Origin: Gammaproteobacteria bacterium | GTDB taxonomy: Bacteria > Pseudomonadota > Gammaproteobacteria > Natronospirales > JAJUFS01 | Reading direction: 5' to 3' | Assembly: GCA_036381715.1 (NCBI GenBank) | Contig: DASVCH010000069.1 | Coordinates: 2,208-66,207 of the forward strand | DNA: 64,000 nucleotides | In this document: in pieces, positions 8,370-63,273 of the stretch | How the letters are laid out: each line of letters starts with the position of its first letter | Numbering within the stretch: position 1 is the stretch's first letter | Translations under genes and position numbers: made by a program | The notes under the pieces: model-generated | Seen by the model: only the letters and a program-made list of their open reading frames with translations | Database searches by the model: none | What the model was told of the DNA's origin: nothing

Positions 8370-8374
8370 TTTTC

Positions 8375-17315: not shown

Positions 17316-17322
17316 AGTGAAG

Positions 17323-17386: not shown

Positions 17387-17469
17387 CTTTCGCCTTTTCG
17401 CCACAAAAGCGAAAGCAATGGACAGGATTAACAGGATTTCATTTCATCAGGGCGGGCTTTGCCCGCCGC
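17387..17469. repeat. Mosaic module with AATGGACAGGATTAACAGGATTT and a GGCGGGC-TTT-GCCCGCC hairpin
   Basis: Alignable by eye with 41632..41711 and, more loosely, 62948..63036. Confidence 0.7.
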
Positions 17470-17504
17470 CTTTCGCCTTTCGCCTTTCGCCTTTCGCCTT
17501 TCGA
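17470..17504. repeat. Pyrimidine heptamer array: CTTTCGC x4, CTTTCGA x1
   Basis: Ends 2 nt before the grxD stop codon. Reads as GCGAAAG-type purine units in the grxD sense. Confidence 0.85.
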
Positions 17505-17506
17505 CC

Positions 17507-25567: not shown

Positions 25568-25682
25568 GTCGAAAGTCGAAAGGCGAAAGGCGAAAGGCGA
25601 AAGGCGAAAAAAAAAGAAGCGAAAAGCGGAAAGTGAAAAGCCGCGCTTCGCGCGGTTTTCACTTTCGACCTTCGACTTCGCC
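25568..25682. repeat. Heptamer element: GTCGAAA x2, GGCGAAA x4, A-run, hairpin core, short CTTTCGA/CCTTCGA arm
   Basis: Starts 3 nt after the lipoprotein stop. The arms are asymmetric. Confidence 0.8.
25633..25662 (+). terminator. Hairpin terminator after the lipoprotein gene
   Basis: GTGAAAAGCCGCGC-TTC-GCGCGGTTTTCAC. Near-identical core to 22442..22460 and 62923..62941. Confidence 0.55.
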
Positions 25683-33263: not shown

Positions 33264-33312
33264 CTTTCGCCTTTCGCCTTTCGCCTTTCGCCTTTCGCCT
33301 TTCGCCTTTCGA
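33264..33312. repeat. Pyrimidine heptamer array: CTTTCGC x6, CTTTCGA x1
   Basis: Ends 2 nt before the TonB-receptor stop. Lies inside the receptor operon spacer. Confidence 0.9.
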
Positions 33313-35563: not shown

Positions 35564-35735
35564 ATCAATAAGGAAAAAGCAAGTGCGCAAGTTATGTAAA
35601 ATCGGGGAAACTTCCATTATGCTTTTACAGACGCCGGAAAATCTTTCCGGACAGTACGGAAAAGGATGTCCGGTCTCCCCTGATCCCTCGCCAACCATGA
35701 GTCCTGGACGTTCCCGTCAGTATCGGAGAGCAAGA

Positions 35736-38700: not shown

Positions 38701-39182
38701 TGGCCAACCGCCGCCACCTGTCCGAGCGCGCGGAGCTGGAATTCCAGCGCTGCGTCCGCTACCGGCGTCCGTTCGCCGTGCTGATGATCGACTTCGACCA
38801 TTTCAAGACCATCAACGACCGTCACGGCCACGACATCGGCGACCGCGTGCTGCGCGAAGCCGGCCGGTTGTTCGCCGACCAGCTTCGCAAGTTCGACGTC
38901 GTGGCGCGCTACGGCGGCGAGGAATTCATCATGTGCCTGCCCGAAACCACGCTCGCGCAGGCGGAACTCGTCGCGGAACGCCTGCGGCAACAGGTCGAGC
39001 GCCTTGGCGTCCCGCTGGACGACGGACTGCTGCAGGTCACCGTGAGCATCGGTGCCGCGTCATCGGAACCGGCTGACGGCAAGCTGCAGGACGTCATTCA
39101 CGCGGCCGACAACGCCCTTTACACCGCGAAGTCGGAAGGAAGAAATCGCGTGCATGCGGGAGAACGGCTGACCGCGGAGTGA
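35736..39182 (+). CDS. Periplasmic beta-propeller/Y_Y_Y sensor fused to GAF-like and GGDEF domains (diguanylate cyclase)
   Basis: ORF 35583..39182. The ATG at 35736 has GGAGAG upstream. Signal/TM region, repeated propeller motifs (LWIGT..GL.R), a Y_Y_Y-like segment (YTFEVRAA), a TM helix, and RYGGEEF. Confidence 0.85.
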   Translation: MTCLALRRAAARLPAAALFLALLLPAANAAESGARAELRFDTLDISDGLSQNSVYAIAQGSLGLIWLGTDDGLHRFDGYEFTAYRKSGSPDRGLQSSSILALLADSRGDLWIGTHSGLHRMNTQTGDITPLRAPPDLPPAIIWDITEDSTGRIWFGGSNGAGYVDGDRLHLLQPPESAAAAPADVWMVRQDAEGTWWAFGENLAAHFETPGGEWRQLDVRAALGLAPGEDFAVDAAGRDGDGQLVLAVAGRLLTLGADNTVAGVAVLPPAAAESAPRDILADDQGNLWIALNDGGLLRRSADGGFAHYRHDPFFEQSLAADRLTDLFLDRNGLLWIGTAVAGVDRFDPATVAIRHYRHHPARENSLGNDNVWSFARAPGGPLWVSTEGGLDRIDPGTGEVTHYRHDDDDPASIASGSGAVLRFDGAGRLWIGAGASLDRHDPETGGFVHHVIPREDIWVVNFLPLGGSRFLVGTQESFGVFDVTGNAFAPLSVDTSIHSGLAYAYALALARAPDGTVWIGTNLGLLAWDGESTAVRDVMHGAWSALYGVNVQDVIPRAGGGLALATAAGLALLGEPGSAITWYTAADGLPEGTLYAVREDLAGKLWVSSNDGLLRIDPATREIDHFDRRDGLQSNEFNGGAALRDAQGRLYFGGINGFNVFDPRELAPRAAAPEAIITRVTHFDGTLAPAADDDGVIEIDWRHNGVTFDFMAADFSAPRGNRFQFRLLPLHEEWMLVEDDHRAAYADLSGGSYTFEVRAATQRGDWGAPARLSLAVASKPWRTWWAWTLYILAALGLLGAILRYQAQRLAAQQTAEYEMRQRQRVQSWHELATSLSRTLDVAEIFALLFKHVKRSVQAGFIALFEERDGRVELVQFQGEAKRTGLRAFATQQPAFIDSLKRTMRMHALPGTELDGDDAGLRDMQLLVIPAHDNTGRLRFLLAGRHGAAFDDEDVSRVAGYASQALIAIDKARLFADVQALATKDELTGLANRRHLSERAELEFQRCVRYRRPFAVLMIDFDHFKTINDRHGHDIGDRVLREAGRLFADQLRKFDVVARYGGEEFIMCLPETTLAQAELVAERLRQQVERLGVPLDDGLLQVTVSIGAASSEPADGKLQDVIHAADNALYTAKSEGRNRVHAGERLTAE

Positions 39183-41711: not shown

Positions 41712-41837
41712 CTTTCGCCTTTCGCCTTTCGCCTTTCGCCTTTCGCCTTTCGCCTTTCGCCTTTCGCCTTTCGCCTTTCGCCTTTCGCCTTTCGCCTTTC
41801 GCCTTTCGACTTTCGACTTTCGACTTTCGACTTTCGA
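41712..41837. repeat. 18-unit pyrimidine heptamer array: CTTTCGC x13, CTTTCGA x5
   Basis: Counted unit by unit. All 18 units are perfect. Ends 9 nt before the stop of the GDPD-like gene. Confidence 0.95.
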
Positions 41838-41846
41838 CTGTCGTCT

Positions 41847-42890
41847 TCACCCTTCCCCGCACGCATTGACCGCGTACCGGTCCGCACCGTGATCGTGATC
41901 CAGCAGCACGCGTACTTCGGGTATCGCCGACAACTCCCGCAACAGTTGCACGTCATCCGGAATGTGATAGATGAACACCGGGACGCCGCCAAGCAGCTCG
42001 CGCGTCACCGGTCCGTAGATCGGTTCCCCGCGGTAGTAATAATTCATTCCGAGCACGTCAAAGTCGCCGAAATGAAAGAGCGCCTTGTAAAGGTTGATGA
42101 CGAACGGCGTCATGAAATGCCCGTCCGCCAGCGGCTGGATATCGAAAATGGTGCGAAAGCCGGCATCCCTGAAATGCGCGAGATGAAACGGCGTCGCGCC
42201 CTCGACGTAAATGCGGTTCTTCGCCATGCCGAGACCGTCCGCAATCTCGACCAGCCGCGCCGCGGCATCGGCGATCGCCTCGTCGCCGAGATGCCGCATG
42301 TGCTTGAAGTCCAGCCAGTAGAAATGTTCGCCGCCGACTTCGCGAAACAGTTTTTCCAGTGACAGGAGTTCGCCGTCCTTCAGGTCGTAGGGGAAGTTGT
42401 GCGACACGACGTATCGCGCAAGCTCGGGGTCGTAGAAGACGTCGATTTCCGCGCCCCGCGCGCCACGCTCGAACGCGAGCCTCACGGTAGCGATGCTGTT
42501 GCCGGCGGTGTGGTCGTTCACCGCCGCATCCAGCACCAGCCCGCGCGTCGCCCAGACCTTGTGGCAGTCCTTGTAGATTCCTTCGTAAGTCCTGGCCTGC
42601 AAGCCGCGATCCAGGAGCGCAACCGACGCATGCCAGGCGAACACAAGCAGCGCAACGGTCGAAACCGCGGCCAGCGGCAGCCGCCAGCGCGACTCCGCGT
42701 AAAGCGATGCGAAACAGGACAGAACAAAGAGCGGCACCAGCAACAGCACGACCAGCACATCAAGGAGGATGAGAGTCGCATCCGCGCTCAGTTGGACAAG
42801 TGCGACGAGAACAAGCAACGCCGCGGCAAGCAGCGCGAAAATCGCGGCAGGCTTCCGGAGATATTTCATTTTCACTCGCGAGCGAATCAT
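41847..42890 (-). CDS. Membrane-anchored glycerophosphodiester-phosphodiesterase-like protein
   Basis: 347 aa. N-terminal TM helices, then a GDPD/PI-PLC-X-like segment (WATRGL...[21 protein letters not shown]). ATGA overlap with the upstream LtaS-like gene. An alternative start exists at 42869. Confidence 0.6.
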
Positions 42891-44929
42891 TCCGGCGCGC
42901 CCGCCGTGACGGAAGGCGCAGTCGCAACCTTTTCCTGTCCGGCGGGCGGTTCAGGCAGGCGGTACCACTTGTGCTTGTACGCGAGGCGCGGCCACTCCGT
43001 GTGCGACAGGGCAAGCTCGAGCAACTGCGCGTCGAGCGCTGCCGGGACCAGCGTCTCGTTCTCGTAACGGAACTGCGACGGTTCGCGGCCTTCCTGGAAG
43101 ATGATGACGTCGTCGTTCCGGCCGTCGCGCTGGCGATAGGCGATGTTGTTGCCGTACTGCATGACCGCGTGCGGCGGAACGGCGTCGATGCCGTCGCCCA
43201 GCAGGTTGATGCCGGTGGTCGGCAGCAGTACGTCCCGGCCGAGCGACAGCAGCGGCAGCACCGTCGGAATCAGGTCGACCTGGCTCGCAAGCCGGTCGAC
43301 GACCTGCGGTTCGATCCCCGCGCCGAGAATCAGCGCCGGCACGCGGTAATGGCGGATCGGCACGAGCTCCGCGCCCAGTACGCGCGAGTCGTGATCCGCA
43401 ACGATCAGGAACACCGTGTCTTTCCAGTACTCCGACTGCTCGGCGAGCTCGAGAAAGACCCCGAGCGCGTGGTCCGCGTACTTGATCGCGTTCTCGCGGG
43501 TTTTCGCCGGCTGGTTGTACGGCTCGATGCTGCCTGCCGGATACTCGAACGGCGTGTGATTCGACGAGGTGAACACGAGACTGAAAAACGGCTCGCCGCC
43601 GGACAGGCTGTCGAAGTATTCGTCCGCCTTGCGGAACAGGTCCTCGTCCGACACGCCCCAGGAACCTTCGAATTGCGGGTTTTCATAGTTCGCGCGGTCG
43701 ATCACGGTCTCGAAGCCGTTGTTCACGAAGAAGCGCCGCATGTTGTCGAATTGCGCGGAGCCGCCGTAGATGAAAGAGGTGCGGTAACCGTGGCGCGCGA
43801 GCAGCCCGGCGATGGTGAAGAAGCCGCGCTGCGTGCCGCCGAGCTTGACCACGCTTTCCGTCGTGGTCGGCAGGAACCCGGTAATGACCGCTTCGATGCC
43901 GCGCACCGACCGTGTTCCCGTCGCGTGCATCTGCGTGAACCAGATGCCCTTCTCGCTGTAGCGATCCAGGTTCGGCGTCAACGGCAGGCCGCCAAGGCTG
44001 CCGACAAAGCGCGCGCCCATGCTTTCTTCCAGCACGATGACAAGGTTTTTCGGCCGGCCGTCCGTTGCCGGGAAACTCACGCGATGAAGGGTCGGCAAGG
44101 CCTCGCTTTCGAAGACGTCCGCCTGCAGGCCGGTCATGCGGCGCATGTTCGCGATCACTTTTTCCTGCGCGATGTCGCCGAACCTGATGCCGTCATCTTC
44201 GTGACGCATCTCGTAGGCGCCATAGAGAACCGAGTACGCGGAACTCAGCGGCAGCATGTTGACCAGGGGATCGGTGGATATTGCGATATTGCTCGGGTTC
44301 GCGGGGCGGTGACCGAAACTCGAGCGGATCGCCACCGCCGAGACCAGTACCAGCAGCGGCACGACGACAAGCGCCGGCAGAATGCCGTTGCGTTGCATTC
44401 CGCGGCTCGCGCTCCGGCAAGCGCGAAAGGCGAACCATGCCAGCAGGGGGACGGTGACGGCCGCGATGAAGATCGGCAGCTTGTAGCCGCTCCACAGCAT
44501 CGCCATGACTTCATCCGGATAGGTCAGGTACTTCACGAACAGGATGTTCGGCCGCAAGCCGTATTCGTCGATGAACCAGGGCGTGGCCAGTTCCATGAAG
44601 AAAATGAAAACCGTGCACAGGGCGAGCCACGCCGGCAGCAGCCAGCTCCAGGCCCGGCGCGGCCACGCGAAAACGCAGGCGAGCGGCGTCAGGGCCAGGG
44701 GAAACACAAGCAGCATGCCCTGCACGATCAGGTCGTAGCGAAGGCCCTGGACCAGGACAAAGATCCAGCCGGAGGCCGCGGCAACGCGATCGGAGAACCA
44801 GAAACCGAGCGCGACGCGCGCGAGCAGCATGATGCCGAGCGTAATCGCGAGATAGGCGGCGAACGGTTTGAGATTTGCGGCAACCGGGCGGAACGCGTCC
44901 AGCGGTTTTCTGGCCTGCATCATTTTCAC
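42887..44929 (-). CDS. LTA-synthase/phosphoglycerol-transferase family sulfatase-fold membrane protein
   Basis: 680 aa. Five or so N-terminal TM helices and an extracytoplasmic sulfatase domain (NLVIVLEESMGARF...THATGTRSVRG...). Confidence 0.8.
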   Translation of the reverse strand: MKMMQARKPLDAFRPVAANLKPFAAYLAITLGIMLLARVALGFWFSDRVAAASGWIFVLVQGLRYDLIVQGMLLVFPLALTPLACVFAWPRRAWSWLLPAWLALCTVFIFFMELATPWFIDEYGLRPNILFVKYLTYPDEVMAMLWSGYKLPIFIAAVTVPLLAWFAFRACRSASRGMQRNGILPALVVVPLLVLVSAVAIRSSFGHRPANPSNIAISTDPLVNMLPLSSAYSVLYGAYEMRHEDDGIRFGDIAQEKVIANMRRMTGLQADVFESEALPTLHRVSFPATDGRPKNLVIVLEESMGARFVGSLGGLPLTPNLDRYSEKGIWFTQMHATGTRSVRGIEAVITGFLPTTTESVVKLGGTQRGFFTIAGLLARHGYRTSFIYGGSAQFDNMRRFFVNNGFETVIDRANYENPQFEGSWGVSDEDLFRKADEYFDSLSGGEPFFSLVFTSSNHTPFEYPAGSIEPYNQPAKTRENAIKYADHALGVFLELAEQSEYWKDTVFLIVADHDSRVLGAELVPIRHYRVPALILGAGIEPQVVDRLASQVDLIPTVLPLLSLGRDVLLPTTGINLLGDGIDAVPPHAVMQYGNNIAYRQRDGRNDDVIIFQEGREPSQFRYENETLVPAALDAQLLELALSHTEWPRLAYKHKWYRLPEPPAGQEKVATAPSVTAGAPE

Positions 44930-45034: not shown

Positions 45035-46381
45035 CTACAACTTTGCCGCGAGGAGGCGTTCGTTGGTCTTCGCCAGGCGCTCGATCAGCGTGCGCACGAA
45101 CACCCGGTGAAACTTCAGCTGCACGTCCTTCGGCGCGCGCTCGATGGCGGCCGCGCTCAGCACCAGCAGGTCGACCGTGCCGCGCGCCCGGATTGTCGCG
45201 GTCCGCTTGATGTGATTGAAGAAACCCATTTCGCCGAAGCAGTCGCCCTCGCGCAGCACGCCAAGCTCGGTGTCGCCCTTCCAGACGGAAACCTCGCCGG
45301 AAACCAGCACGAAGAAGCTGTCGTCCAGTTCGCCTTCGGTCACGATGTTGCGGCCGCTGGCGAGATTGCGCCATTGCCCCGCGCGAACGACTTCGCGCAG
45401 TTCCCCGTCATTGAAGCCGTCGAAGAACGCCAGCCGGCGCGACAGTTTCACCCGTGCATCTTCGTCAAGCTCCTGCGTCGCTGCGTTGATCTCGTCGAAG
45501 ATGTAGGCGAGGTCGCCGGCGATGTCGAGTCCGCTGCGGTAACGCCGGCGCGGCTCCTTGCGCAGGCAGCGCATGATCACGCGGTCGAGAATCCCGGGCA
45601 CATCGACCCGGTAGCGGCTTGGCGGCACCGGCTCTGCGTGCATGATCCGGTGCGTGAGATCTTTCAGCGACTCGGCGAAGAATGGCGACATGCCCGTCAG
45701 GAGTTCGTAGACCGTCACGCCAAGGGAATAGAGATCGGTCTGATGGTTGACGTCCTCGCCGCGCACCTGCTCGGGCGACATGTAACGCGGCGTGCCGATG
45801 GAACCGGCCAGCTCGTCGTCCGGCCGCCTCGCGGACTTGGCAATGCCGAAATCCACGATCAGCGTATGACCGCGCGCGTTCATCAGGATGTTGGCGGGCT
45901 TGATGTCGCGGTGAACGACGCCGCTGCGGTGCGCGTATTCCAGCGCCTTTGCCGTCGAGAAGAAAATTTCGACGACCTTGCTCATCGGCAGGAGGCTGTC
46001 GGCGCGCGCGTATTTCGACAGCGCCACCGAATCCGGCAGGAATTCCATCACCACGTAGCGCCGGCCGTCCTCTTCGCCGGCGTCGTGGATCGGCAGGATG
46101 TTCGGGTGCTTTAGCTGGCCGGCGAGGTGCGCTTCGTTGAAAAACAGCCGCGACTGCAATGCCGCCTGCTGGCCTTCGAGCTGATCGTCCCGGTAGTAGA
46201 CCTTGATCGCGACGTCGCGATTCTCGAAGGGATCGTGACCGAGATAGACGATTCCGGAACTGCCGCGGCCGAGTTCGCGCTGCAGGGCGTACTTGCCGAG
46301 TCTTGCCGGCGCCGGCCCTGCCGGCGCAACCGCTGCGGCTTCTGCCATGCCAAGCGGTGTCGTCGATCCATGACGTTTCAT
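45035..46381 (-). CDS. Hanks-type Ser/Thr protein kinase fused to a C-terminal cyclic-nucleotide-binding domain (copy 2)
   Basis: ORF 45035..46720 trimmed to the ATG at 46381, which overlaps the upstream stop (TAATG). Kinase motifs GRGSSGIVY, VAIK, HRDIKPANIL, DFG, TPRYMSPE. CNB motif FGEMG...RTATI. Confidence 0.85.
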   Translation of the reverse strand: MKRHGSTTPLGMAEAAAVAPAGPAPARLGKYALQRELGRGSSGIVYLGHDPFENRDVAIKVYYRDDQLEGQQAALQSRLFFNEAHLAGQLKHPNILPIHDAGEEDGRRYVVMEFLPDSVALSKYARADSLLPMSKVVEIFFSTAKALEYAHRSGVVHRDIKPANILMNARGHTLIVDFGIAKSARRPDDELAGSIGTPRYMSPEQVRGEDVNHQTDLYSLGVTVYELLTGMSPFFAESLKDLTHRIMHAEPVPPSRYRVDVPGILDRVIMRCLRKEPRRRYRSGLDIAGDLAYIFDEINAATQELDEDARVKLSRRLAFFDGFNDGELREVVRAGQWRNLASGRNIVTEGELDDSFFVLVSGEVSVWKGDTELGVLREGDCFGEMGFFNHIKRTATIRARGTVDLLVLSAAAIERAPKDVQLKFHRVFVRTLIERLAKTNERLLAAKL

Positions 46382-47661
46382 TACCTGTCGTCCTTTACCA
46401 CCCGCTCGCTCGTCCTTGTCAGGCGCTCGATCAATGTGCGCAGGAACACCTTGTGAAACCGCAGCTGGCAGGCCATCGACGCCTGCTCGATCAGCGTGGA
46501 ATTCACGCGCATCACCGCGACGCCCTTTTCCGAGGTGACGGTCGCCGTTCTTTCGGTCTTGTTGAGATAGCCCATTTCGCCGAAGCAGTCGCCTTCCTGG
46601 AGTTTTCCCAGCGACTTGCCGCCCTTGGTCACGACGACCTCGCCGGAGACGATGATGAAGAAGCTTTCGTCGATCTCGCCTTCGACGACGATCGAATCGC
46701 CGGTGTCGTAGGTCTCCCATTTGCTGGCGTTCAGCACCTCCCAGACTTCCGGGTAGCTGAACTCCCGGAAGAAGCTCAGGCGCCGCACCATGTTGAAGCG
46801 CTCCTGCTCCGCGACTTCGCGCGCCATCCGGCCGAGGTCGTTGAACGCCGTTGTCAGCGCGACGGAAAGTTCCAGCGCGGACCTGTAGCGCCTGGCGGGA
46901 TCCTTGTTCATCGCCCGATCGACGATCTGCTCCAGCATTTCAGTGACTTCCGAGCGCAGGCGATGCACGGGAATCGGCGTGGCGTAAAGCACCTGGTGCA
47001 CCAGCGCGGAAAGGTTTTCGCCGTAGAACGGCCGCTTGCCCGTGAGCAGTTCGTACATCAATACACCCAGCGCATAGATGTCCGTCTGGTTGGTGATGCT
47101 TTCTTCGCGCACCTGCTCCGGTGCCATGTAGCTCGGGCTGCCGACCAGGCCCGACATCGGCGTCAGGTCGGCGACGGGATTGTGCGCGATGCCGAAATCC
47201 ACGATGCGAACATCGCCATCGGCGGTCATCAGGATATTGCTCGGCTTGATGTCGCGGTGAACGACGCCCTTGCGGTGCGCGTAATCCAGCGCCTTCGCGC
47301 ACTTGAAGACGATCTCGACGATCTTCCTGACCGGCAGCAGGTTCTGCGGCTGGCAGAAGGCCGACAGCGGCTTGCCGCCGCGCACGTACTCCATGACGAT
47401 GTAGCACTTGCCGTCTTCCTCGCCGGCATCGTAGATCGGCAGCACATTCGGATGCTGCAGCATCCCGGCCAGGTGCGCCTCGTTGAAGAACAGGCGCTTT
47501 CTCACGCGCTGCTGTTCCTCGGAAAGGCCCGCGTCGCTCGCAAAAAGCTTCAGCGCCACGTCGCGCTGGTGATACGGATCGTGGCAGAGATAGACGGTGC
47601 CCGAGCCGCCCTTGCCGAGTTCGCGCGTGATGACGTATTTGCCGAGCTTTTCGATCTTCAT
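46381..47661 (-). CDS. Hanks-type Ser/Thr protein kinase fused to a C-terminal cyclic-nucleotide-binding domain (copy 1)
   Basis: 426 aa. Kinase motifs GKGGSGTVY, VALK, HRDIKPSNIL, DFG, SPSYMAPE. CNB motif FGEMG...RTATV. The start overlaps the pgpA stop (ATGA). Confidence 0.9.
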   Translation of the reverse strand: MKIEKLGKYVITRELGKGGSGTVYLCHDPYHQRDVALKLFASDAGLSEEQQRVRKRLFFNEAHLAGMLQHPNVLPIYDAGEEDGKCYIVMEYVRGGKPLSAFCQPQNLLPVRKIVEIVFKCAKALDYAHRKGVVHRDIKPSNILMTADGDVRIVDFGIAHNPVADLTPMSGLVGSPSYMAPEQVREESITNQTDIYALGVLMYELLTGKRPFYGENLSALVHQVLYATPIPVHRLRSEVTEMLEQIVDRAMNKDPARRYRSALELSVALTTAFNDLGRMAREVAEQERFNMVRRLSFFREFSYPEVWEVLNASKWETYDTGDSIVVEGEIDESFFIIVSGEVVVTKGGKSLGKLQEGDCFGEMGYLNKTERTATVTSEKGVAVMRVNSTLIEQASMACQLRFHKVFLRTLIERLTRTSERVVKDDR

Positions 47662-48143
47662 GAAAAATATGTCCAGGCGAAGTGCGCGAGCCGCAGGCTT
47701 GCCGCCGCGAACAGTCCGGCGACGAGGTCGTCGGCCATGATACCGGCTCCGCCGCCGAGGCGGCGATCAAGCCAGCCGATCGGCCACGGTTTCACGATGT
47801 CGAAAAACCGGAACGCGACGAACGCCGCCAGCATCCACCACCAGCCCGCCGGCAGCAACAGCATGGCGAGATAGAAACCCGCGATCTCGTCGATGACGAT
47901 GCCGCCGTGATCGTGCACGCCGAGCTTGCGCGCGCTTGCGCCGCCCGCCCAGGTGCCGGCAAGAATCAGGAAAAGACAGATTCCCGCGCGCAACGCCAGC
48001 GGCAGCTGCCACGTCGCCCAGACGAGTGGAATCGCCGCGAGCGTGCCGGCCGTGCCCGGCGCGACCGGCGCGAGCCCCGCGCCCGAGCCGAAGGCCAGCC
48101 AGTGCGCGGGATCGGAAAAGATGTCGCGCGGCGAGGGTTTCAT
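47658..48143 (-). CDS. pgpA: Phosphatidylglycerophosphatase A
   Basis: 161 aa. Motifs GSGAGLAPVAPGTAGTL, IDEIAGF and FRFFDIVKPWPI. Confidence 0.9.
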   Translation of the reverse strand: MKPSPRDIFSDPAHWLAFGSGAGLAPVAPGTAGTLAAIPLVWATWQLPLALRAGICLFLILAGTWAGGASARKLGVHDHGGIVIDEIAGFYLAMLLLPAGWWWMLAAFVAFRFFDIVKPWPIGWLDRRLGGGAGIMADDLVAGLFAAASLRLAHFAWTYFS

Positions 48144-49075
48144 GTCCGGAAGTGCTCCCAGCCGCGGCGCGCGGGTTCGTATCGCGCGCCATTGGAGTCG
48201 ACGATCATCAGTCCCGGTTCCGCGACAATCTCCCCGACGGCCGTGATTTCGCAGCCATTGTCCCTAGCGCGCAATTCGGCCAGTTTTTCGGGGCGCAGGC
48301 AAAAGCACAGTTCGTAGTCGTCGCCACCCGCGAGCACGAAATCCTGCGCGTCTTTCGAATATTCGCGCAGTTCCTCCGAAATCGGCAGGCGGTCGAGTTC
48401 GATGCGCCCGCCCGCGCCGCTTGCCTTCAATACGTGGCCGAGATCCGCGAGCAGGCCGTCCGAGATGTCGATGGCCGCGGTCGCGCATTCGCGCAGGTTC
48501 GCCCCGAGCCCGAGGCGCGGAACGGGGCGGCGAAAGCGCGCCGCCAGCGGATGTTCCGGCGCGTCCTGCCACAGCTCGAGGCCGGCGGCCGCCTCGCCCG
48601 GCATGCCGCTGACGCAGATGACGTCGCCCGGTTGCGCGCCGCCGCGCGCGATCGCCTGGCCTGCCGGAACCTCGCCGATCACAGTGACTGTGACGGACAA
48701 CGGTCCCTGCGTCGTGTCGCCGCCGGCGAGAAGTGTCGCGGACATTTCCGCGAGCGCGAAGAATCCGTCCGCGAAATCGCGGAGCCACGCCGGCCCGGGT
48801 TCGGGCAAGGTGAGGTTCAGAAACGCGAAGCGCGGCGTCGCGCCCATCGCGGCGACGTCGGAAAGATTCACGGCCAGCGCGCGCCAGCCGATGTCTTCCG
48901 CGGGAAAGCCTTCCGGGAAATGCCGGCCTTCGATGATGGTGTCGGTGACGACGACCTGGTCGAAACCTGCGCGCGGCCGCAGCACCGCGCCATCGTCGCC
49001 GATGCCGAGCACGAGGTCATCGGTGGACGCGTTGCGCCGGAAGTATTCGTCGATGATCTGGAATTCGCCAGGCAT
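48140..49075 (-). CDS. thiL: Thiamine-monophosphate kinase
   Basis: 311 aa. Motifs GIGDDGAVL, TDTIIEGRHF and WRALAVNLSDVAAMGA. Confidence 0.9.
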   Translation of the reverse strand: MPGEFQIIDEYFRRNASTDDLVLGIGDDGAVLRPRAGFDQVVVTDTIIEGRHFPEGFPAEDIGWRALAVNLSDVAAMGATPRFAFLNLTLPEPGPAWLRDFADGFFALAEMSATLLAGGDTTQGPLSVTVTVIGEVPAGQAIARGGAQPGDVICVSGMPGEAAAGLELWQDAPEHPLAARFRRPVPRLGLGANLRECATAAIDISDGLLADLGHVLKASGAGGRIELDRLPISEELREYSKDAQDFVLAGGDDYELCFCLRPEKLAELRARDNGCEITAVGEIVAEPGLMIVDSNGARYEPARRGWEHFRT

Positions 49076-49088: not shown

Positions 49089-49553
49089 TCAGCCGCGCCG
49101 CGCCGCGATCTCGACCTTGCGCAGTTCCGCGGCCGTGCGGTCGAGAATCGCGTTGACGTAGCGATGCCCTTCCTCGGCGCCGAAGCGCTTGGCGAGCTCC
49201 ACGCCTTCGTTGATGACCACGCGGTAGGGAATGTCGAGCCGTTCCTTCAACTCGTAGCACCCTATTAAAAGAATGGCGCGCTCGACGGGATCGATCTGGT
49301 CCGCCGGACGGTCGAAGTTCGGTGCGAGCACGGCGGCGAATTCCTCCTCGCGCTCGACGCATTGCTCCAGCAGTTCGTCGAAGTACTCCGGATCGACGCG
49401 GTCGAATTCGGGGTTCTCGTGGAACTGGGCGCGCAGCGTCTTCCAGTGATCGTCGCCGATCTGATGCTGGTAGAGCGCCTGCATGGCCAGCCTTCTGGCA
49501 TTGCTGCGGCGACGATTCGCGTTGCCGCTGCCTTTCGCGGGGGAATCGTTCAC
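49089..49553 (-). CDS. nusB: Transcription antitermination factor NusB
   Basis: GTG at 49553 overlaps the ribH stop (GTGA) inside ORF 49089..50183. Motifs [23 protein letters not shown] and [14 protein letters not shown]. Confidence 0.85.
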
Positions 49554-50023
49554 GGCAGGTCGCGCATCAGGTTGGCCATTTCGATCGCGGTCGCGGCCGC
49601 ATCCATTCCCTTGTTGCCGGCCTTGGTGCCGGCACGTTCGATGGCCTGCTCGATGGTGTCCGTCGTCAGCACGCCGAAAGCGACCGGCACGCCGGTTTCG
49701 CTCGCGGCCGAGCCACAGGCGCGCGCGCATTCGCCGGCGACAAAATCGAAATGTGGCGTCGCCCCACGGATCACCGCGCCGAGCGCGATCACCGCCGCGT
49801 AATTGCCGGAACGGCACAGGCGATGCACCACGGGGCCCATCTCGAAGGCGCCCGGAACGCGCACGATGTGCACGCGGCCGGCGTCCACCCCGTGCCGGCG
49901 CAGGGTGTCCAGCGCGCCGTTGACAAGGCTTTCCGTGATGAAGCCGTTGAAGCGCGCCGCCACGATCGCGAACTGCCCCTCCGCGCCGATCATGGTGCCT
50001 TCGAATGTTTTGATATCCGTCAT
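49550..50023 (-). CDS. ribH: 6,7-dimethyl-8-ribityllumazine synthase
   Basis: 157 aa. Motifs [17 protein letters not shown] and GVLT. Confidence 0.9.
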
Positions 50024-50088
50024 TTTCGAGCCCTAAGTCCTTCTTTCGCCGGGATTTTGCGGGCCGCCATTGTAGCAGCACGACAAAT

Positions 50089-50144
50089 CTTTCGCCTTTC
50101 GCCTTTCGCCTTTCGCCTTTCGCCTTTCGCCTTTCGCCTTTCGC
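50089..50144. repeat. 8-unit array CTTTCGC x8 in the ribBA-ribH spacer
   Basis: Counted unit by unit. Abuts the ribBA stop (1 nt gap). I found no complementary arm nearby. Confidence 0.95.
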
Positions 50145-50145
50145 C

Positions 50146-51240
50146 TCAATCGCAATCCACGTAATCCACCACCTCAAGACCAAAGCCCGAAATGCCGTGC
50201 ATCCGCTTCGGCGCCGACAGCACCCGCATGCGGCGTACGCCGAGATCGTTGAGAATCTGCGCGCCTACGCCGTAGGTCCGCAGCACGGTCGCGCCATCCA
50301 CCGCGTCCTCGCTTCGCGGCCTGTCGCCCTGGCGGAAGCGTTCGGCAATGTCGGCGGGCTTTTCCTCCGGCCGCAGGATCACCAGCACGCCGCCCTCTTC
50401 CGCGATTCGCCGCATGGCGTTTCGAAGCGGCCAGCCAAGCGTGTTCCAGCCGAGGTTCATGACATCCGACAGCGTGTTCTGCAGGTGCACGCGCACCAGC
50501 GTCGGCTCTTCCGGGTCGACGTCGCCGCGCACCAGCGCAAAGTGAACCGTGCGATGCACGTAATCCTCGAAGCACACGACGCGGAACTCGCCGAACTCGG
50601 TCTCGACAGTCTGCTCGCCGATGCGCTCGACCGATTGTTCCTTTTCCATCCGGTAGCGAATCAGATCGGCAATCGTGCCGATCTTGAGACCGTGCGTGTC
50701 CGCGAACTTCTCGAGATCCGGCAGGCGCGCCATGGAGCCGTCGTCGTTCAGGATTTCGACAATCACCGCGGCGGGTTCATGGCCCGCAAGCCGCGCAAGA
50801 TCGCAGCCGGCTTCGGTGTGTCCGGCGCGCGACAGCACGCCGCCCGGCTGCGCCATCAATGGAAAAATGTGGCCCGGCTGTTTCAGGTCTTCGGGGCGCG
50901 CGTCCTTCTTCACCGCGGTTCGCACGGTGTGCGCGCGGTCGTGCGCGGAAATGCCGGTGGTGACGCCCTCGGCGGCCTCGATCGACAGCGTGAAGTTCGT
51001 CGCCAGCTGTTCGTTGGTTTCCGTCACCATCAGCGGCAGGCGCAATTGCCGGCAGCGATCCTGCGTCACCGTCAGGCAGATCAGGCCGCGCCCGTTGCGC
51101 GCCATGAAGTTGATGTCTTCCGGCCGCACCATGGACGCCGCCATGATGAGATCGCCTTCGTTCTCGCGATCCTCGTCATCCATCATGATGACCATCTTGC
51201 CGTTACGGATGTCTTCGAGGATGTCTTCGATCTTGTGCAT
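50146..51240 (-). CDS. ribBA: Bifunctional 3,4-dihydroxy-2-butanone-4-phosphate synthase / GTP cyclohydrolase II
   Basis: 364 aa. Opens GKMVIMMDDEDRENEGDLIMAA, with a C-terminal RibA-like half. Confidence 0.9.
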   Translation of the reverse strand: MHKIEDILEDIRNGKMVIMMDDEDRENEGDLIMAASMVRPEDINFMARNGRGLICLTVTQDRCRQLRLPLMVTETNEQLATNFTLSIEAAEGVTTGISAHDRAHTVRTAVKKDARPEDLKQPGHIFPLMAQPGGVLSRAGHTEAGCDLARLAGHEPAAVIVEILNDDGSMARLPDLEKFADTHGLKIGTIADLIRYRMEKEQSVERIGEQTVETEFGEFRVVCFEDYVHRTVHFALVRGDVDPEEPTLVRVHLQNTLSDVMNLGWNTLGWPLRNAMRRIAEEGGVLVILRPEEKPADIAERFRQGDRPRSEDAVDGATVLRTYGVGAQILNDLGVRRMRVLSAPKRMHGISGFGLEVVDYVDCD

Positions 51241-51275
51241 CTTGCGCCTCGCATGCGCCTGTTGTGAAAGAGAAG

Positions 51276-51375
51276 AATGGACAGGATTTACAGGATTGAA
51301 GATGGATTGACAGGATTTAAAAGCAAACGCAAAAAATACTGTTAATCCTGAAAAATCCTGTCAATCCTGTCCATT
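51276..51375. repeat. AT-rich inverted repeat built from AATGGACAGGATT(T/G)ACAGGATT modules in the ribE-ribBA spacer
   Basis: Left arm 51276..51297. Right arm 51354..51375 (AATCCTGTCAATCCTGTCCATT) overlaps the last ribE codons. Further GGATTGACAGGATTT and AATCCTGAAAAATCCTG submodules lie between. Confidence 0.8.
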
Positions 51376-51975
51376 GCTCTTTGTTTGCTCCGACAAAAGT
51401 CGCTCCAGGTATCGTGCGACCACATCGACTTCCAGGTTCACCTTGTCGCCTGGCGAGCGCGAACCGAGGTTCGTCACCGCAAGCGTATGCGGCACGATGT
51501 TCACGTCGAAACGCGAACCATCGACGCCGTTGACAGTGAGACTGATGCCGTCGATGCAGATGGAGCCCTTGCGCGCGATGTATTTCGCGAGCGCTTGCGG
51601 CGCTTCGAACAGGAAACGCCAGGAGCGCGCGTCTTCCTTTCTTTCGATGAGCATTCCGACGCCGTCGACGTGACCGCTGACCAGGTGCCCGCCAAGGCGT
51701 TCGCCTGCAGCGAGCGCGGGTTCGAGATTCACGCGGTCGCCGGCTTTCAACGAACCGAGCGTCGTGTGCTCCAGCGTCTCGCGCGAGACGTCCGCGACAA
51801 GATGCGTTTTCGCCGGTTCGATCGCCGTCAGGCACACGCCATTCACCGCGATGCTTTCGCCGGTCGCGAAATCCTTTCCTGAGAGATCGCCAAGCGCGAC
51901 ACGAAGACGCATGTCCCCGTTGCGCGTTTCCACGTTTTCAACCGATCCCGTAGCCTGGATGATTCCGGTGAACAT
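51361..51975 (-). CDS. ribE: Riboflavin synthase
   Basis: 204 aa. Motifs MFTGIIQATG, GESIAVNGVCLT and GSICIDGISLTV. The last five codons and the stop lie in the AT-rich repeat module. Confidence 0.9.
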   Translation of the reverse strand: MFTGIIQATGSVENVETRNGDMRLRVALGDLSGKDFATGESIAVNGVCLTAIEPAKTHLVADVSRETLEHTTLGSLKAGDRVNLEPALAAGERLGGHLVSGHVDGVGMLIERKEDARSWRFLFEAPQALAKYIARKGSICIDGISLTVNGVDGSRFDVNIVPHTLAVTNLGSRSPGDKVNLEVDVVARYLERLLSEQTKSNGQD

Positions 51976-51986
51976 GTCTTCTCTCC

Positions 51987-52065
51987 AAGGGAGAAGAAAG
52001 AAGGGAGAAGAAAGAAGAGTTCCTTCGCCGACGTCCCCTTCTACCTTCTATCTTCTACCTTTCTT
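51987..52065. repeat. Purine (GGGAGAA GAAAGAA x2) and pyrimidine (CTTCTAC CTTCTAT CTTCTAC CTTTCTT) heptamer arms in the ribD-ribE spacer
   Basis: Read directly. Arms are only partly complementary. The pyrimidine arm overlaps the ribD 3' end. Confidence 0.75.
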
Positions 52066-53153
52066 GTCAGCATCAGGCGAATGTCCTCGCCAATCTGCCG
52101 TACGTCGCGTAACGTGAACTCAAGCCGGTCGGACAATTTTTCCATTCCCGGCAACGCCACCAGCGGCTGCGCTTCATGCCCCATCAGGACCGGCGCCTGA
52201 TAGACAATGAGTTCATCGGCAAGGCCGCGGTCGAGAAACTGACCCGCCAGTGTCGCGCCCGCTTCGACCAGCACGTCGTTGTGCTCGAGTTCGCCGAGCC
52301 GTACGAGTACGGCTTCCAGCAGCAGCGCGCCTGCGCCGTCGTCCTGGATCGTTTCGACCGTCGCGCCCGCCGCCTCCAGCGCCGCGCGACGTTCGATGTT
52401 GTCGTCGCAAGTGAAAATCCGCACTGTGCCCGGGCGCGACAGGATTCTCGCACCCGGCGGCGTGCGCAGTTCCGGATCCAGCACGATGCGTTCCGGCTGG
52501 CGTGCCGCATCCGGCAGCCGCACGTCGAGCCGCGGATCATCGGCAAGCACGGTGCCCATGCCGGTGACCAGCCCCGAGCATTCGGCGCGCAGGCGCTGCA
52601 CGTCGGCGCGCGCGGCATCGCCCGTGATCCATTTCGATTCCCCGCTGGCCATGGCGGTGCGGCCATCAAGGCTCGCGGCGAGTTTCACGCGCACGCGCGG
52701 CCGGCCTTCCGTCATGCGCTTGATGAAACCGAGGTTCAGTTCGCGCGCGGCGATGCCGAGCAGGCCTTCCTCGATGCGAACACCTTCGGCGCGCAGGCGT
52801 TCCAGCCCCTGCCCCGCCACGTGCGGGTTCGGGTCCACCATCGCCGCGACCACGCGCGCGATGCCCGCACGGACCAGCGCGTCGGCGCACGGCGGCGTGC
52901 GGCCGTGATGGCTGCACGGCTCCAGTGTCACGTAGGCCGTCGCATCGCGCGCGTTTTCACCCGCCATTTCGAGCGCGCGTACTTCCGCATGCGCCTCGCC
53001 TGCCCTGGCATGAAAACCTTCACCGACGATTTCGCCGTCCTTCACGATCACGCAACCGACGCGCGGATTCGGATGCGTGGTGTTCCAGCCGCGGCGCGCG
53101 AGTTCGATCGCGCGGGCCATGAAACGATGGTCGCCTGTTGAAAACATGGTCAT
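52041..53153 (-). CDS. ribD: Bifunctional riboflavin biosynthesis deaminase/reductase
   Basis: 370 aa. Motifs HAEVRAL, TLEPCSHHGRTPPC and a reductase half. The C-terminal RKVEDRR and the stop are encoded by heptamer units. Confidence 0.9.
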   Translation of the reverse strand: MTMFSTGDHRFMARAIELARRGWNTTHPNPRVGCVIVKDGEIVGEGFHARAGEAHAEVRALEMAGENARDATAYVTLEPCSHHGRTPPCADALVRAGIARVVAAMVDPNPHVAGQGLERLRAEGVRIEEGLLGIAARELNLGFIKRMTEGRPRVRVKLAASLDGRTAMASGESKWITGDAARADVQRLRAECSGLVTGMGTVLADDPRLDVRLPDAARQPERIVLDPELRTPPGARILSRPGTVRIFTCDDNIERRAALEAAGATVETIQDDGAGALLLEAVLVRLGELEHNDVLVEAGATLAGQFLDRGLADELIVYQAPVLMGHEAQPLVALPGMEKLSDRLEFTLRDVRQIGEDIRLMLTRKVEDRR

Positions 53154-53160: not shown

Positions 53161-53233
53161 GGTAGTAAGGAAGAAGTGAGAAGGAGGAAGATGCGATGTC
53201 TTCTACCTTCTCACTTCTTTCTTCTCACTTCTT
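53161..53233. repeat. Heptamer-based hairpin in the nrdR-ribD spacer
   Basis: GTGAGAAGGAGGAAGA, then TGCGATG, then TCTTCTACCTTCTCAC: a 16-bp stem with one mismatch. Further heptamers sit on both sides. It contains the nrdR stop. Confidence 0.8.
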
Positions 53234-53734
53234 GTCATCCGGCAGCAACGAAATCTGATGTTTCTTCAACGCCTCTTCCAGCGGCCGTTTCTCCAGCCGC
53301 TCGATTTCCTCGCGGAAGGCGTTCACGTCCTCGAAGCTGCGATAGACGGATGCGAAGCGCACGTAGGCGACCTGGTCGAGTTCCTGCAATTCCTGCATCA
53401 CCCATTCGCCGATCTGCCGCGATTTCACTTCGCGTTCGCCGGCCGCGCGCAGCTTGTGCGTGATGCGAGCAATCGCCGCTTCCACGGCCTCCGTTCCGAC
53501 CGGCCGCTTTTCGAGCGCGCGCATCAGCCCCGAACGCAGCTTGTTTTCATCGAACGGCTGGCGCACGCCGCCGGACTTGATGACGCGCGGCATGACCAGT
53601 TCCGCGCTCTCGAAGGTGGTGAACCGTTCGCTGCAGCGGATGCACTCGCGGCGGCGGCGAACCTGGCTGCCCTCGCTCGCCAAACGCGAGTCGATGACCT
53701 TGGTCTCCTCGTGTTCGCAGAACGGGCAGTGCAT
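53225..53734 (-). CDS. nrdR: Transcriptional repressor NrdR
   Basis: 169 aa. The opening [17 protein letters not shown]...[16 protein letters not shown] is a zinc ribbon, followed by an ATP cone. Confidence 0.95.
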
Positions 53735-53741
53735 GCTTGCC

Positions 53742-55016
53742 TCAGATCGAGAACGTCATCGTTTCCGGGTACACGGGAAACCGCCTGCAAAGCTCAAGGA
53801 CCTTTTCGCGCGTCGCGTCGATCACGGATTCGTTGCCGATATCGTCCAGCACGTCCGCGATCCAGCCGGCGACTTCCGTGATTTCCCTTTCCTTGAAACC
53901 GCGCGTGGTCGCGGCCGGCGTGCCGATGCGAAGACCGGAGGTCACGAACGGCGACTGCGGATCGTTCGGCACGGTGTTCTTGTTCACGGTGATGTACGCG
54001 CGGCCGAGCGCGGCGTCGGCGTCCTTGCCCGTCATGCCCTTGTCGATCAGGTCGAGCAGGAAAAGATGATTGTCCGTGCCGCCGCAGACGATGCGGTAGC
54101 CGCGATCCTGCAACGCTTTCGCCATGGCGCGCGCATTCGCGACGACCTGCTTCTGGTATTCCCTGAACTCCGGCTGCAACGCTTCGGCGAAGGCGACGGC
54201 CTTCGCCGCGATGACGTGCATCAGCGGACCGCCCTGCGTGCCCGGAAACACCAGCGACTGGAATTTCTTTTCGATGTCCGGGTTCGACTTCGCGAGAATC
54301 ACGCCGCCGCGCGGGCCGCGCAGCGTCTTGTGCGTGGTGGAGGTGACGGCGTGCGCGTGCGGCACCGGGTTCGGGTACTCGCCCGCCGCGACCAGACCGG
54401 CAACGTGCGCCATGTCCACGACGAGGTAGGCATCGACATCATCCGCGATCGCGCGGAACTTCGCCCAGTCCATGATGCGCGAATACGCCGAGAAACCGGC
54501 GACGATGACTTTCGGCCTGTGTTCATTGGCCAGCTGCGCGATGCGGTCGTAATCCAGTTCGCCCGTTTCCGGATCAATGCCGTATTGGACGGCGTTGAAC
54601 AGTTTCCCGGAGAAATTCGGTTTCGCCCCATGCGTGAGGTGACCGCCGTGATCCAGGCTCATGCCGAGCAGGGTGTCGCCGGGCTTCATCAGCGCCATGA
54701 ACACCGCCGCGTTCGCCTGCGAGCCGGAGTGCGGCTGCACGTTGGCGTAGTCCGCGCCAAAGAGCTGCTTCACGCGCTCGATGGCGAGGTTTTCCGCCAC
54801 GTCCACGAACTCGCAGCCGCCGTAATAGCGCTTGCCGGGATAGCCTTCCGCGTACTTGTTGGTCAGCACCGAGCCTTGCGCGGCCAGCACTCTCGGGCTC
54901 GCGTAATTCTCGGAGGCGATCAGCTCGATGTGATCTTCCTGCCGGCGGCGCTCGGCCTGCATGGCGTCGAACAGGGCGTCGTCGAATCCCTGGATGGTCA
55001 TGTCCTGGCGGTACAT
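53742..55016 (-). CDS. glyA: Serine hydroxymethyltransferase
   Basis: ORF 53742..55136 trimmed to the ATG at 55016 ([47 protein letters not shown]). Contains the PLP motif [14 protein letters not shown]. Confidence 0.95.
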
Positions 55017-55214
55017 CTGGAGGCTCTCCTCGTCGGTTCCGGCCCGCCCCTGGTCAGGGTCCGGAAATGCCCCGGGACGCGCCCGGGAATGCGGGTGAAG
55101 AAGCGTCGCATTGTACCCGAATGCCCCGGGCGGCACAGGCCGCGCGCAATGCCGGCCGCGGTTTTCCGGGGGTATCCGCCGATGGCAAGCGGGGGGTCCG
55201 GCTGTTATTTCCTG

Positions 55215-55733
55215 ATGAAATCATGGCAGTGCGGGTGGCCGAAGGTGGCGCTGAAGGATATCGAGACGATCAAGCATTCGGTGGAACTGAAGGAGTTCCA
55301 CAAGTTCCACGTCTGGATCTGGCGCCTGCAATACCTGTTCATGGCGCTGGTCGTCGTCACCGCGATACTCACTGTCGCCGGACTGTTCGGCGACGGCTGG
55401 ATGAGCCGGACGCAGATCGTCGACGATGACGCCGCCGTCGTTTACCAGCGCTTTGCGCGTTACGGCAACGACACCGTGCTGGAAACCCGCCTGTCCGGCA
55501 ACAATGCCAGTGTCGAGGTGCCGCTCGAGTATTTCGAGCGCTTCAGGCTCGACAGCGTGGTTCCGGAACCGCGCGAACAGCGCGTGCGGGGAAACCGGAT
55601 CGTGTTCGAATTCAGCACGGGCGAGGCCATGACGGCGCGCTTCCACCTGGTACCGCGGCGGTCCGGCGCCTCGGAAACCACGATCGTCGTCGGGGGCGCG
55701 TCATTCCCCGTCGCCCAGTTCACCTGGCCCTGA
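55215..55733 (+). CDS. Hypothetical single-pass membrane protein
   Basis: ATG at 55215 in the frame of ORF 53454..55733. One TM helix ([18 protein letters not shown]). Strong third-position GC. The stop is 2 nt before the DUF421 gene start. The start codon is uncertain. Confidence 0.5.
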
Positions 55734-63119: not shown

Positions 63120-63273
63120 CTTTCGCCTTTCGCCTTTCGCCTTCTCCCTTCTCCCTTCTCCCTTCTCCCTTCTCCCTTCTCCCTTCGACCTTCGACCTTC
63201 TCCCTTCGACCTTCGACCTTCGACCTTCGACCTTCGACCTTCGACCTTCGACCTTCGACCTTCGACCTTCGAC
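63120..63273. repeat. 22-unit mosaic pyrimidine heptamer array: CTTTCGC x3, CTTCTCC x6, CTTCGAC x2, CTTCTCC x1, CTTCGAC x10
   Basis: Counted unit by unit: 154 nt with no phase break. Ends 22 nt upstream of the MASE1 gene ATG. Confidence 0.95.

Follow-up and report, generated by a model that had tools for sequence, protein, structure and literature searches.

Paralogous soluble PknB-type Ser/Thr kinases with C-terminal cyclic-nucleotide-binding domains behind pgpA in a gammaproteobacterium: candidates for gating by a cyclic nucleotide

Introduction

Can a bacterium connect a cyclic nucleotide directly to Ser/Thr phosphorylation? The question is raised by two adjacent genes, here called kin1 and kin2, on the minus strand of a 64,000-nt stretch of a gammaproteobacterial genome (GenBank assembly GCA_036381715.1, contig DASVCH010000069.1, positions 2,208 to 66,207; hereafter the window), each of which encodes a Hanks-type kinase followed by a cyclic-nucleotide-binding (CNB) domain. 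Textbooks have bacterial cyclic AMP (cAMP) act mainly through CRP-type transcription factors and treat cyclic-nucleotide-dependent protein kinases as eukaryotic. The bacterial CNB-kinase fusion is already known from a census of 2007, where it is listed under 'Other_bacterial ... kinases' (PMC2246266), and the literature yielded no work on what it does, on its genomic surroundings or on its paralogs. The comparative evidence presented below identifies kin1 and kin2 as old paralogs of a large uncharacterised bacterial family of soluble PknB-type Ser/Thr kinases, and we give a probability of about 0.6 to the reading that a 3',5'-cyclic nucleotide, bound to the C-terminal CNB domain, gates both.

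Catalytic domains of kin1 and kin2

An earlier note on this DNA, made from the letters alone, had delimited both kinase open reading frames (ORFs), and its coordinates agree exactly with the ORF list and translation:

46381..47661, minus strand: kin1 (group A of the trees below), 426-aa soluble Hanks-type Ser/Thr kinase with C-terminal CNB domain (ORF and Pfam)
45035..46381, minus strand: kin2 (group B), 448-aa paralog with the architecture of kin1 and a 22-aa N-terminal tail (MKRHGSTTPL...)

Profile comparison with Pfam found in each protein, as the note had expected, both a Pkinase domain (PF00069; kin1 E=1.6e-54, 185.5 bits; kin2 E=7.1e-49, 167.0 bits; cutoff 31.7) and a cNMP_binding domain (PF00027; kin1 51.7 bits, 8.5e-14; kin2 58.4 bits, 7.3e-16; gathering score 27.5). 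These were the only Pfam domains, in agreement with the proposal that neither protein has a transmembrane, FHA or PASTA region, and the C-terminal CNB domain is the sole sensor in both. The kinase moieties comprise:

46885..47637, minus strand: kin1 kinase domain, aa 9-259 (Pfam limits)
45539..46291, minus strand: kin2 kinase domain, aa 31-281 (Pfam limits), catalytic residues all kept
47161..47163, minus strand: codon of kin1 Thr167 in the activation loop, the predicted autophosphorylation site by comparison with RD-type Hanks kinases
45815..45817, minus strand: codon of kin2 Asp189, the equivalent of kin1 Thr167 (alignment and translation)

Reading of the two sequences, which are 50% identical over 418 residues in a gapless alignment, recovered the complete series of Hanks motifs listed in the note, namely the Gly loop (GKGGSG in kin1, GRGSSG in kin2), VALK / VAIK, HRDIKP(S/A)NIL, DFG, and the APE-type motif (SPSYMAPE and TPRYMSPE, respectively), and in addition the alphaC Glu within FFNEAH. 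The catalytic residues of kin1 (K38, E61, H135-R136-D137, N142 and D155) are invariant in 106 family members, and both proteins look catalytically competent.

The activation loop distinguishes the two paralogs. A Thr occupies the alignment column of kin1 Thr167 in 90 of the 106 members, and the corresponding loop of kin2, RRPDDELAG, is acidic and devoid of Thr. Deeper members of group B have TTQ or STQ at this position, so that Thr was lost only within a recent sub-lineage of B; the one to which the window belongs also gained a conserved N-terminal STTPL tail. Otherwise kin2 departs from family-invariant positions only at S175T, E186G, W307R and I336V, with two more changes (F289V and L276I) found in kin2 and its relative at locus L002 only. 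Given the lost Thr, the acidic residues and the retained canonical phosphate-binding cassette described below, kin2 is likely a specialised accessory paralog whose activity would depend on the ligand alone.

CNB domain, linker and structural model

The regulatory parts of the two proteins were delimited as follows:

46486..46755, minus strand: kin1 CNB domain, aa 303-392, N-terminal helix and beta-barrel (Pfam 316-392, AlphaFold2 (AF2) strands 313-387)
46537..46584, minus strand: kin1 phosphate-binding cassette FGEMGYLNKTERTATV, aa 360-375 (translation)
45137..45370, minus strand: kin2 CNB domain, aa 338-415 (Pfam and translation)
45191-45238, minus strand: kin2 phosphate-binding cassette FGEMGFFNHIKRTATI (translation)
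46783..46878, minus strand: kin1 linker helix, aa 262-293 (AF2 helix; conserved hydrophobic positions 266/269/273/276)
46390..46476, minus strand: kin1 long C-terminal helix, aa 396-424 (AF2), equivalent to the CNB B/C 'lid' helices

In cyclic-nucleotide binders the canonical phosphate-binding cassette (PBC) has the motif FGE...R[ST]A, with a Glu contacting the ribose and an Arg contacting the phosphate (PMC2246266). The PBC is intact in both proteins, as the earlier note had stated, and conforms to this motif with both contact residues in place. Across the 106 members G361, E362 and R371 are invariant, and A373 as well as T/S372 are kept in 103; in group B the PBC is canonical in every member examined. 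In the C-terminal helix, Q399, L400, F402, F406, R413 and L414 are invariant in the 89-sequence alignment A1. A Cys stands directly before FGE (Cys359 in GDCFGEM, codon 46585-46587, with an equivalent in kin2) in 105 of the 106 members, which is unusual for CNB domains; this conserved residue might be a sign of redox sensitivity.

The AF2 model of kin1, calculated from an 89-sequence alignment (predicted local distance difference test 86, predicted template-modelling score 0.70), consists of the kinase, with the bilobal fold of protein kinases (aa 1-260), a 32-residue helix (262-293), the CNB beta-barrel (313-387) and a 29-residue C-terminal helix (396-424), the PBC loop being the least confident part of the barrel. 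In a Foldseek comparison, the best solved structural match of the kinase was Mycobacterium tuberculosis PknB (template-modelling (TM) score 0.88, target-normalised; 31-33% identity; root-mean-square deviation 2.2-2.8 A). The best sequence match of the kin1 CNB domain in the PDB was CNB-D of Plasmodium PKG (E=1.3e-11, 47.7 bits), followed by the R subunits of PKA; the domain is thus, by sequence, most similar to the ligand-binding CNB domains of PKG and PKA, which supports cyclic-nucleotide gating.

Family size, paralog history and selection

A search with kin1 retrieved full-length relatives by the thousand, with this pair of domains and with no annotation beyond 'serine/threonine-protein kinase'. 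The protein searches with kin1 and with kin2 each gave >7,000 matches at E<=1e-10, many of which are probably to the kinase domain alone, and a query restricted to the CNB domain plus linker gave 2,276 cluster representatives at E<=1e-10; some of the latter are other multi-CNB proteins, and the single-stretch matches are mostly proteins of ~430 aa matched at their C-termini. Most relatives of kin1 come from uncultured Gammaproteobacteria, Natronospira proteinivora, with a single group-A gene, and strain AB-CW1 being named carriers. A scan of species-level genomes detected 80 loci, including many Usitatibacter/Burkholderiales genomes and Nitrospirota (Dissulfurispiraceae), and a metagenome scan with kin2 detected 8 loci. 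Longer variants of the family (490-621 aa) contain only Pkinase and cNMP_binding, with no extra informative domain. Four proteins of 900-1200 aa (P0166, P0171, P0205 and P0237) carry two C-terminal CNB domains closely related to that of the family, with no Pfam domain in the remainder.

Neighbour-joining trees with bootstrap resolved kin1 and kin2 into group A (100% support) and group B (100%), united in an A+B clade (97%). In group A, kin1 is joined by its orthologs in L001-L006 and L084-L086 and by the genes of Natronospira and AB-CW1. The pair did not arise by a recent local tandem duplication, A and B being old paralogs. A second, independent duplication (joint support 100%) occurred in another gammaproteobacterial clade; there the pair flanks an opposite-strand pgi gene in 16 loci (L008, L012, L015, L010, L024 and others; about 8000-12800) and often adjoins SCO1/PCuAC and psd.

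Linkage of group A to pgpA, proposed from the window, proved to be conserved well beyond close relatives. The gene follows pgpA directly in the window, L001-L006, L081-L087 and L090, and thiL directly in L089; overall, at least 16 loci have it behind thiL-pgpA, the most divergent at 47% identity. The coupling of kin1 to kin2 was upheld in part: group B is found in tandem after A in seven loci (window, L002, L004, L006, L085, L086 and L087), and is missing from the slot in several lineages or located elsewhere. It is cleanly missing in the nearest relative, L001, where kin1 is 96% identical and synteny jumps from window position 46360 to 44968, a 1.4-kb absence, and likewise in L005, L084, L081-L083, Natronospira and AB-CW1. 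The deeper group-B genes P0317 and P0325 stand alone near gshA-dsbA, far from pgpA. As some B genes reside elsewhere in the genome, absence from the slot is no proof of genome-wide loss.

The ratios of nonsynonymous to synonymous substitution rates (dN/dS) of window genes against L001, L002 and L004 were:

kin1: 0.04-0.13
kin2: 0.13-0.24
ribH: 0.07-0.14
thiL: 0.17-0.30
pgpA: 0.13-0.33

Purifying selection on kin1 is stronger than on thiL or pgpA. These values mark both kinases as functional genes under purifying selection, kin1 being among the most constrained at the locus, and the kinase-CNB family is vertically inherited and constrained as strongly as riboflavin biosynthesis genes.

Operon setting and neighbouring genes

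The kinase genes close a same-strand housekeeping string with the order glyA-nrdR-ribD-ribE-ribBA-ribH-nusB-thiL-pgpA-kin1-kin2, composed upstream of kin1 of:

47658..48143, minus strand: pgpA, phosphatidylglycerophosphatase A (Pfam PgpA 2e-40)
48140..49075, minus strand: thiL, thiamine-phosphate kinase (TIGR01379, 319.6 bits vs cutoff 184)
49089..49553, minus strand: nusB (tblastn orthologs in L001-L006; probable GTG start)
49550..53153, minus strand: ribD, ribE, ribBA and ribH, the upstream part of the string (Pfam and ORFs)
53225-55136, minus strand: nrdR and glyA, further upstream of the rib genes

The string is tightly packed, with stop/start overlaps at ribH/nusB (GTGA, 49550-49553), thiL/pgpA (4 nt, 48140-48143), pgpA/kin1 (ATGA, 47658-47661) and kin1/kin2 (TAATG at 46381, for the 448-aa form of kin2), the last two exactly as the earlier note had read them. 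No obvious Shine-Dalgarno sequence precedes kin1, so that its translation may depend on coupling to pgpA. The NCBI annotation starts kin2 11 codons later (P0270, 437 aa), which would abolish the TAATG overlap; the longer form is better supported, since the N-terminal motif MK.HGSTTPL is kept in relatives at 71-87% identity and the ATG at 46381 has an AAGGA 9 nt ahead of it. The order nrdR-rib-nusB-thiL-pgpA is also found in relatives. Group A, at the 3' end of this string, is probably part of that transcript, and the placement of both kinase genes within the pgpA transcription unit, as originally proposed, agrees with the gene arrangement.

A promoter and terminator scan of 41.5-53.5 kb gave one promoter vs 1.8 in shuffled sequence and 13 terminators vs 12.5; with counts at the shuffled level, the scan is uninformative on operon boundaries. 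An Rfam scan of 40-56 kb detected no riboswitch or other RNA.

Beyond kin2, a gap of 105 nt is followed by two same-strand membrane-protein genes:

42887-44929, minus strand: LtaS/MdoB-like membrane 'Sulfatase' protein, 680 aa (Pfam Sulfatase 2.5e-51)
41847-42890, minus strand: 347-aa membrane protein without family match

Both are present in L001 and absent in L002, L004 and more distant relatives, and these genes (41847..44929) are probably outside the kinase system. In relatives a convergent folE2-dxs-ispA-xseB string directly follows the kinase gene(s), so the kinase slot is the junction between two core gene strings. Assignment of the 347-aa protein as a glycerophosphodiester phosphodiesterase was considered and dropped, there being no Pfam match at E<=5 and no PDB match at E<0.07. 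Beyond its gene in the window lies a divergent FAD monooxygenase gene.

Partner genes in the window and in the family

Genes were called over the full window with a GC3 filter and scanned against Pfam. No PP2C, FHA or nucleotide cyclase domain was present among the called genes, and tblastn of the window with PP2C and FHA proteins from relatives gave no match. The claim that no PP2C phosphatase gene is nearby thus stands for this window and extends to FHA, but it is not a family trait, as it fails in Nitrospirota and some gammaproteobacterial members. Four Nitrospirota loci (L023, L025, L027 and L028) have a CHASE2-PP2C gene and a small FHA gene immediately upstream of the kinase gene; in L023 (Dissulfurispiraceae, 4988-9281) these encode a CHASE2-PP2C protein of 740 aa and an FHA protein of 241 aa, followed on the same strand by the kinase-CNB gene. 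Three gammaproteobacterial loci have a VWA-FHA gene downstream of the kinase. CHASE2-PP2C, FHA and kinase form the classic trio of Hanks signalling, and the Nitrospirota cluster looks like a complete sensor-phosphatase/FHA/kinase module, which argues for signalling through phospho-Thr recognition in the family.

Proposed gating by a cyclic nucleotide and the rival explanations

The reading that we favour would proceed as follows. A 3',5'-cyclic nucleotide, either cAMP or cyclic GMP (cGMP), between which sequence cannot decide, would bind the PBC and reposition the C-terminal B/C helix together with the ~30-residue linker helix. The kinase domain would thereby be released or dimerised and would then autophosphorylate its activation loop (at Thr167 in kin1). 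The phospho-signal would probably be read by FHA-domain proteins and erased by a PP2C encoded elsewhere in the genome, a readout for which Nitrospirota and some gammaproteobacterial members provide the model, with such an arrangement in cis. The steps after ligand binding are modelled on CNB allostery (PMC2246266) and on PknB-type activation. As for the slot behind pgpA, its most likely benefit is constitutive expression at a housekeeping level, and not a functional link with thiamine or phospholipid metabolism.

Several observations weigh against this reading. The PBC is divergent in a number of group-A proteins (R-D-S in Natronospira, R-E-H in AB-CW1, R-P-I in L086_kA and a shifted Arg in L084), which implies that ligand dependence is not universal in the family. 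In cAMP binders the Gly between beta2 and beta3 (PKA Gly169) co-varies with the PBC Arg (PMC2246266); in a manual ungapped alignment of GDEGDNFYVI (PKA) with GEIDESFFII, its equivalent is Asp331, conserved at >=90%, and the first Gly of the loop, G328, is invariant. The AF2 model is monomeric, and the interdomain mechanism is inferred by analogy only. The 64-kb window contains no cyclase gene, and cross-clade clustering of neighbouring genes found no partner conserved family-wide. Finally, the literature yielded no functional study of the family or of any bacterial kinase-CNB protein, and a preprint atlas of bacterial Ser/Thr kinases makes no mention of cyclic nucleotides.

Some of these points feed the explanation that survives best after cyclic-nucleotide gating, according to which the CNB domain senses no cyclic nucleotide of the usual kind and serves as a ligand-independent autoinhibitory or dimerisation module, as a receptor for another small molecule (a nucleoside, cCMP/cUMP or cyclic di-GMP (c-di-GMP)), or as a redox sensor through Cys359. 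The divergence of the PBC in several otherwise well-conserved group-A orthologs, the apparent Asp in place of PKA Gly169 in the manual alignment (PMC2246266), the nearly universal Cys359 before FGE (105/106), and the occurrence in the window of three c-di-GMP-related proteins and no cAMP/cGMP cyclase are all consistent with it. CNB folds, moreover, can bind haem and chlorophenols (PMC2246266), as well as nucleosides (PMC10959531). Nevertheless, the full FGE...R[ST]A cassette is intact in 103 of the 106 members with an invariant Arg371, whereas families with other ligands have replaced the PBC Arg (PMC2246266); the nearest CNB domains of known structure are genuine receptors for cGMP and cAMP, and cyclases need not be linked to kinase genes. 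We therefore regard a CNB domain without cyclic-nucleotide sensing as unlikely.

An obligate partnership of A and B, either as a heterodimer or as a two-step relay, was also weighed. In the relay version, which draws on the intact PBC and the acidic, Thr-less activation loop of kin2, kin2 would be the ligand sensor and trans-phosphorylate Thr167 of kin1, which would carry the signal to substrates. The A-B tandem is kept across deep divergence (7 loci, kin1 identity 58-92%), the kin1/kin2 junction overlaps, and the PBC of group B is always canonical, also next to L086_kA, whose own PBC is degenerate. In another gammaproteobacterial clade, about 19 genomes likewise retain the second, independent pair of paralogs, and the few changes of kin2 at invariant positions imply that it is not a dead pseudokinase. 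On the other hand, A stands without an adjacent B in L001, L005, L084, Natronospira and AB-CW1, some B genes lie far from A and pgpA, and the loss of the activation-loop Thr is limited to a recent B sub-lineage. An obligate partnership is accordingly quite unlikely.

The boldest form of this idea, more doubtful still, is that the asymmetric A/B pair represents the first bacterial kinases dependent on cyclic nucleoside monophosphates (cNMP), a PKA/PKG analogue built independently from a PknB-type kinase, in which B would be the cNMP sensor that switches on A via Thr167; the acidic activation loop of B in the window lineage would then be phosphomimetic. If true, core physiology in environmental Gammaproteobacteria, which are widespread, would be subject to Ser/Thr phosphorylation under the direct command of a second messenger.

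The genomic slot suggests yet another possibility, namely that the kinases are tied to envelope or phospholipid metabolism and regulate PgpA, the LtaS/MdoB-like phosphoglycerol transferase or related enzymes. The gene adjoins pgpA in at least 15 loci, with a stop/start overlap; a same-strand LtaS-like membrane enzyme comes next in the window and L001, and a phosphatidylserine decarboxylase gene is nearby in L015. Outside the A lineage, however, the neighbours are others (pgi, a rhodanese protein, ispF, an SLT transglycosylase, gshA-dsbA), L002, L004 and every more distant relative lack the LtaS-like gene, and the slot is a permissive insertion site between the convergent rib-nusB-thiL-pgpA and xseB-ispA-dxs strings. 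A functional tie to pgpA or envelope lipids, whose whole basis is synteny, is thus very unlikely.

CNB domains gate effectors in some cyclic-nucleotide defence systems, and the kinase domains have a sub-threshold NCBIfam likeness to the defence kinases MADS6 and PglW (BREX), but a mobile anti-phage module, with a kinase effector gated by a cyclic-nucleotide alarm (Pycsar/CBASS-like), is extremely improbable in view of scores far below the cutoffs (MADS6 166 vs 460 bits, PglW 84 vs 990), vertical inheritance at one constant place in the core genome, where synteny holds down to 47% identity and dN/dS is very low, and a core housekeeping context in the window with no cyclase partner, mobile-element genes or composition anomaly.

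Returning to gating by a cyclic nucleotide, if the CNB domain does control the kinase, bacteria would possess a way of their own to turn a cNMP signal directly into protein phosphorylation, and the stakes are raised by the size of the family, its vertical inheritance, the strong constraint and the core-operon position. The retention of two paralogs after two independent duplications offers a natural system for studying sensor-kinase specialisation. Both proteins are soluble, about 430 aa long and open to clear experiments.

Other features of the window

The remaining genes of the window belong to core metabolism (PDH complex, sodB, nadC, rimK), and base composition is uniform throughout, with no anomaly. 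Three genes are related to c-di-GMP:

35583-39182, plus strand: Reg_prop/Y_Y_Y-GGDEF protein, 1199 aa
22480-25077, minus strand: GAF-GGDEF-EAL protein
63296-64000, plus strand: MASE1-domain protein, cut by the window end

Two ORFs are misleading. One (45035-46720, minus strand) is a 561-aa form of kin2 with an in-frame upstream extension over the end of kin1; the other (53454-55733, plus strand; 759 aa, no family match) is a shadow of the minus-strand nrdR and glyA. Spurious ORFs also arise from intergenic heptanucleotide tandem arrays, located at 41712-41847, 50089-50146, 33264-33311, 25570-25641 and 17467-17508, with further arrays at 63136-63273, 17303-17356 and 6540-6566. Their units are CTTTCGC (x19.4, x8.3 and x6.9, with extra copies in other phases or on the opposite strand) and TTCGACC/GTCGAAG (up to x19.9); one of the arrays separates ribBA from ribH within the rib operon.

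Comparison with known systems

In Pat proteins of the Mt-Pat/Rv0998 type, a bacterial CNB domain makes a protein-modifying catalytic domain dependent on a cyclic nucleotide. Over the CNB region of the kinases there is a weak NCBIfam match, far below the cutoff (E=3.4e-5, 23 vs 460 bits); the output domain of Pat is a GNAT acetyltransferase and its CNB domain is N-terminal. Among the CNB classes of Kannan et al. 2007 (PMC2246266), the PBCs of kin1 and kin2, GEMGYLNKTERTATV and GEMGFFNHIKRTATI, fit 'Other_bacterial'; that work, a census only, neither defines a family nor says how the kinase fusions function, where they lie in genomes or how their paralogs are structured.

The closest catalytic domains are those of the mycobacterial PknB, PknE and PknA, both by sequence (E 1e-46 to 1e-48) and by fold (TM score 0.83-0.89, 30-33% identity), and these too are RD kinases with an activation-loop Thr. 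Unlike them, kin1 and kin2 lack a transmembrane helix as well as PASTA or any other extracellular sensor, their sensor being cytoplasmic and C-terminal. Their scores of 279.7 and 241.6 bits fall short of the 450 bits set for the PASTA kinase equivalog NF033483 (PknB_PASTA_kin), and the match covers only positions 7-281 of the 563 in the profile.

PKA and PKG, to which the earlier note had compared the pair, resemble kin1 and kin2 in combining CNB sensing with a Ser/Thr kinase, in PKG within one polypeptide. Mammalian PKG I and Plasmodium PKG (PDB 5DYK/4RZ7/5EZR) are examples; CNB-D of the latter is the closest solved match of the kin1 CNB domain, and the PBC of both proteins reads R-T-A-T, as does the PKG consensus (PMC2246266 Table 1). 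In contrast, the domains stand in the opposite order, from kinase to CNB; there is one CNB domain instead of two to four; the kinase is PknB-like, with no AGC tail domain (Pkinase_C) in Pfam; and an N-terminal dimerisation or autoinhibitory segment is lacking. Full-length matches to PKG are, in fact, the sum of separate domain matches. The comparison therefore holds as an analogy of logic, given that the CNB domain matches PKG and PKA best, but not as homology of the kinase, which is PknB-like and not AGC: kin1 and kin2 are outside the PKA/PKG family and may nevertheless follow the same logic.

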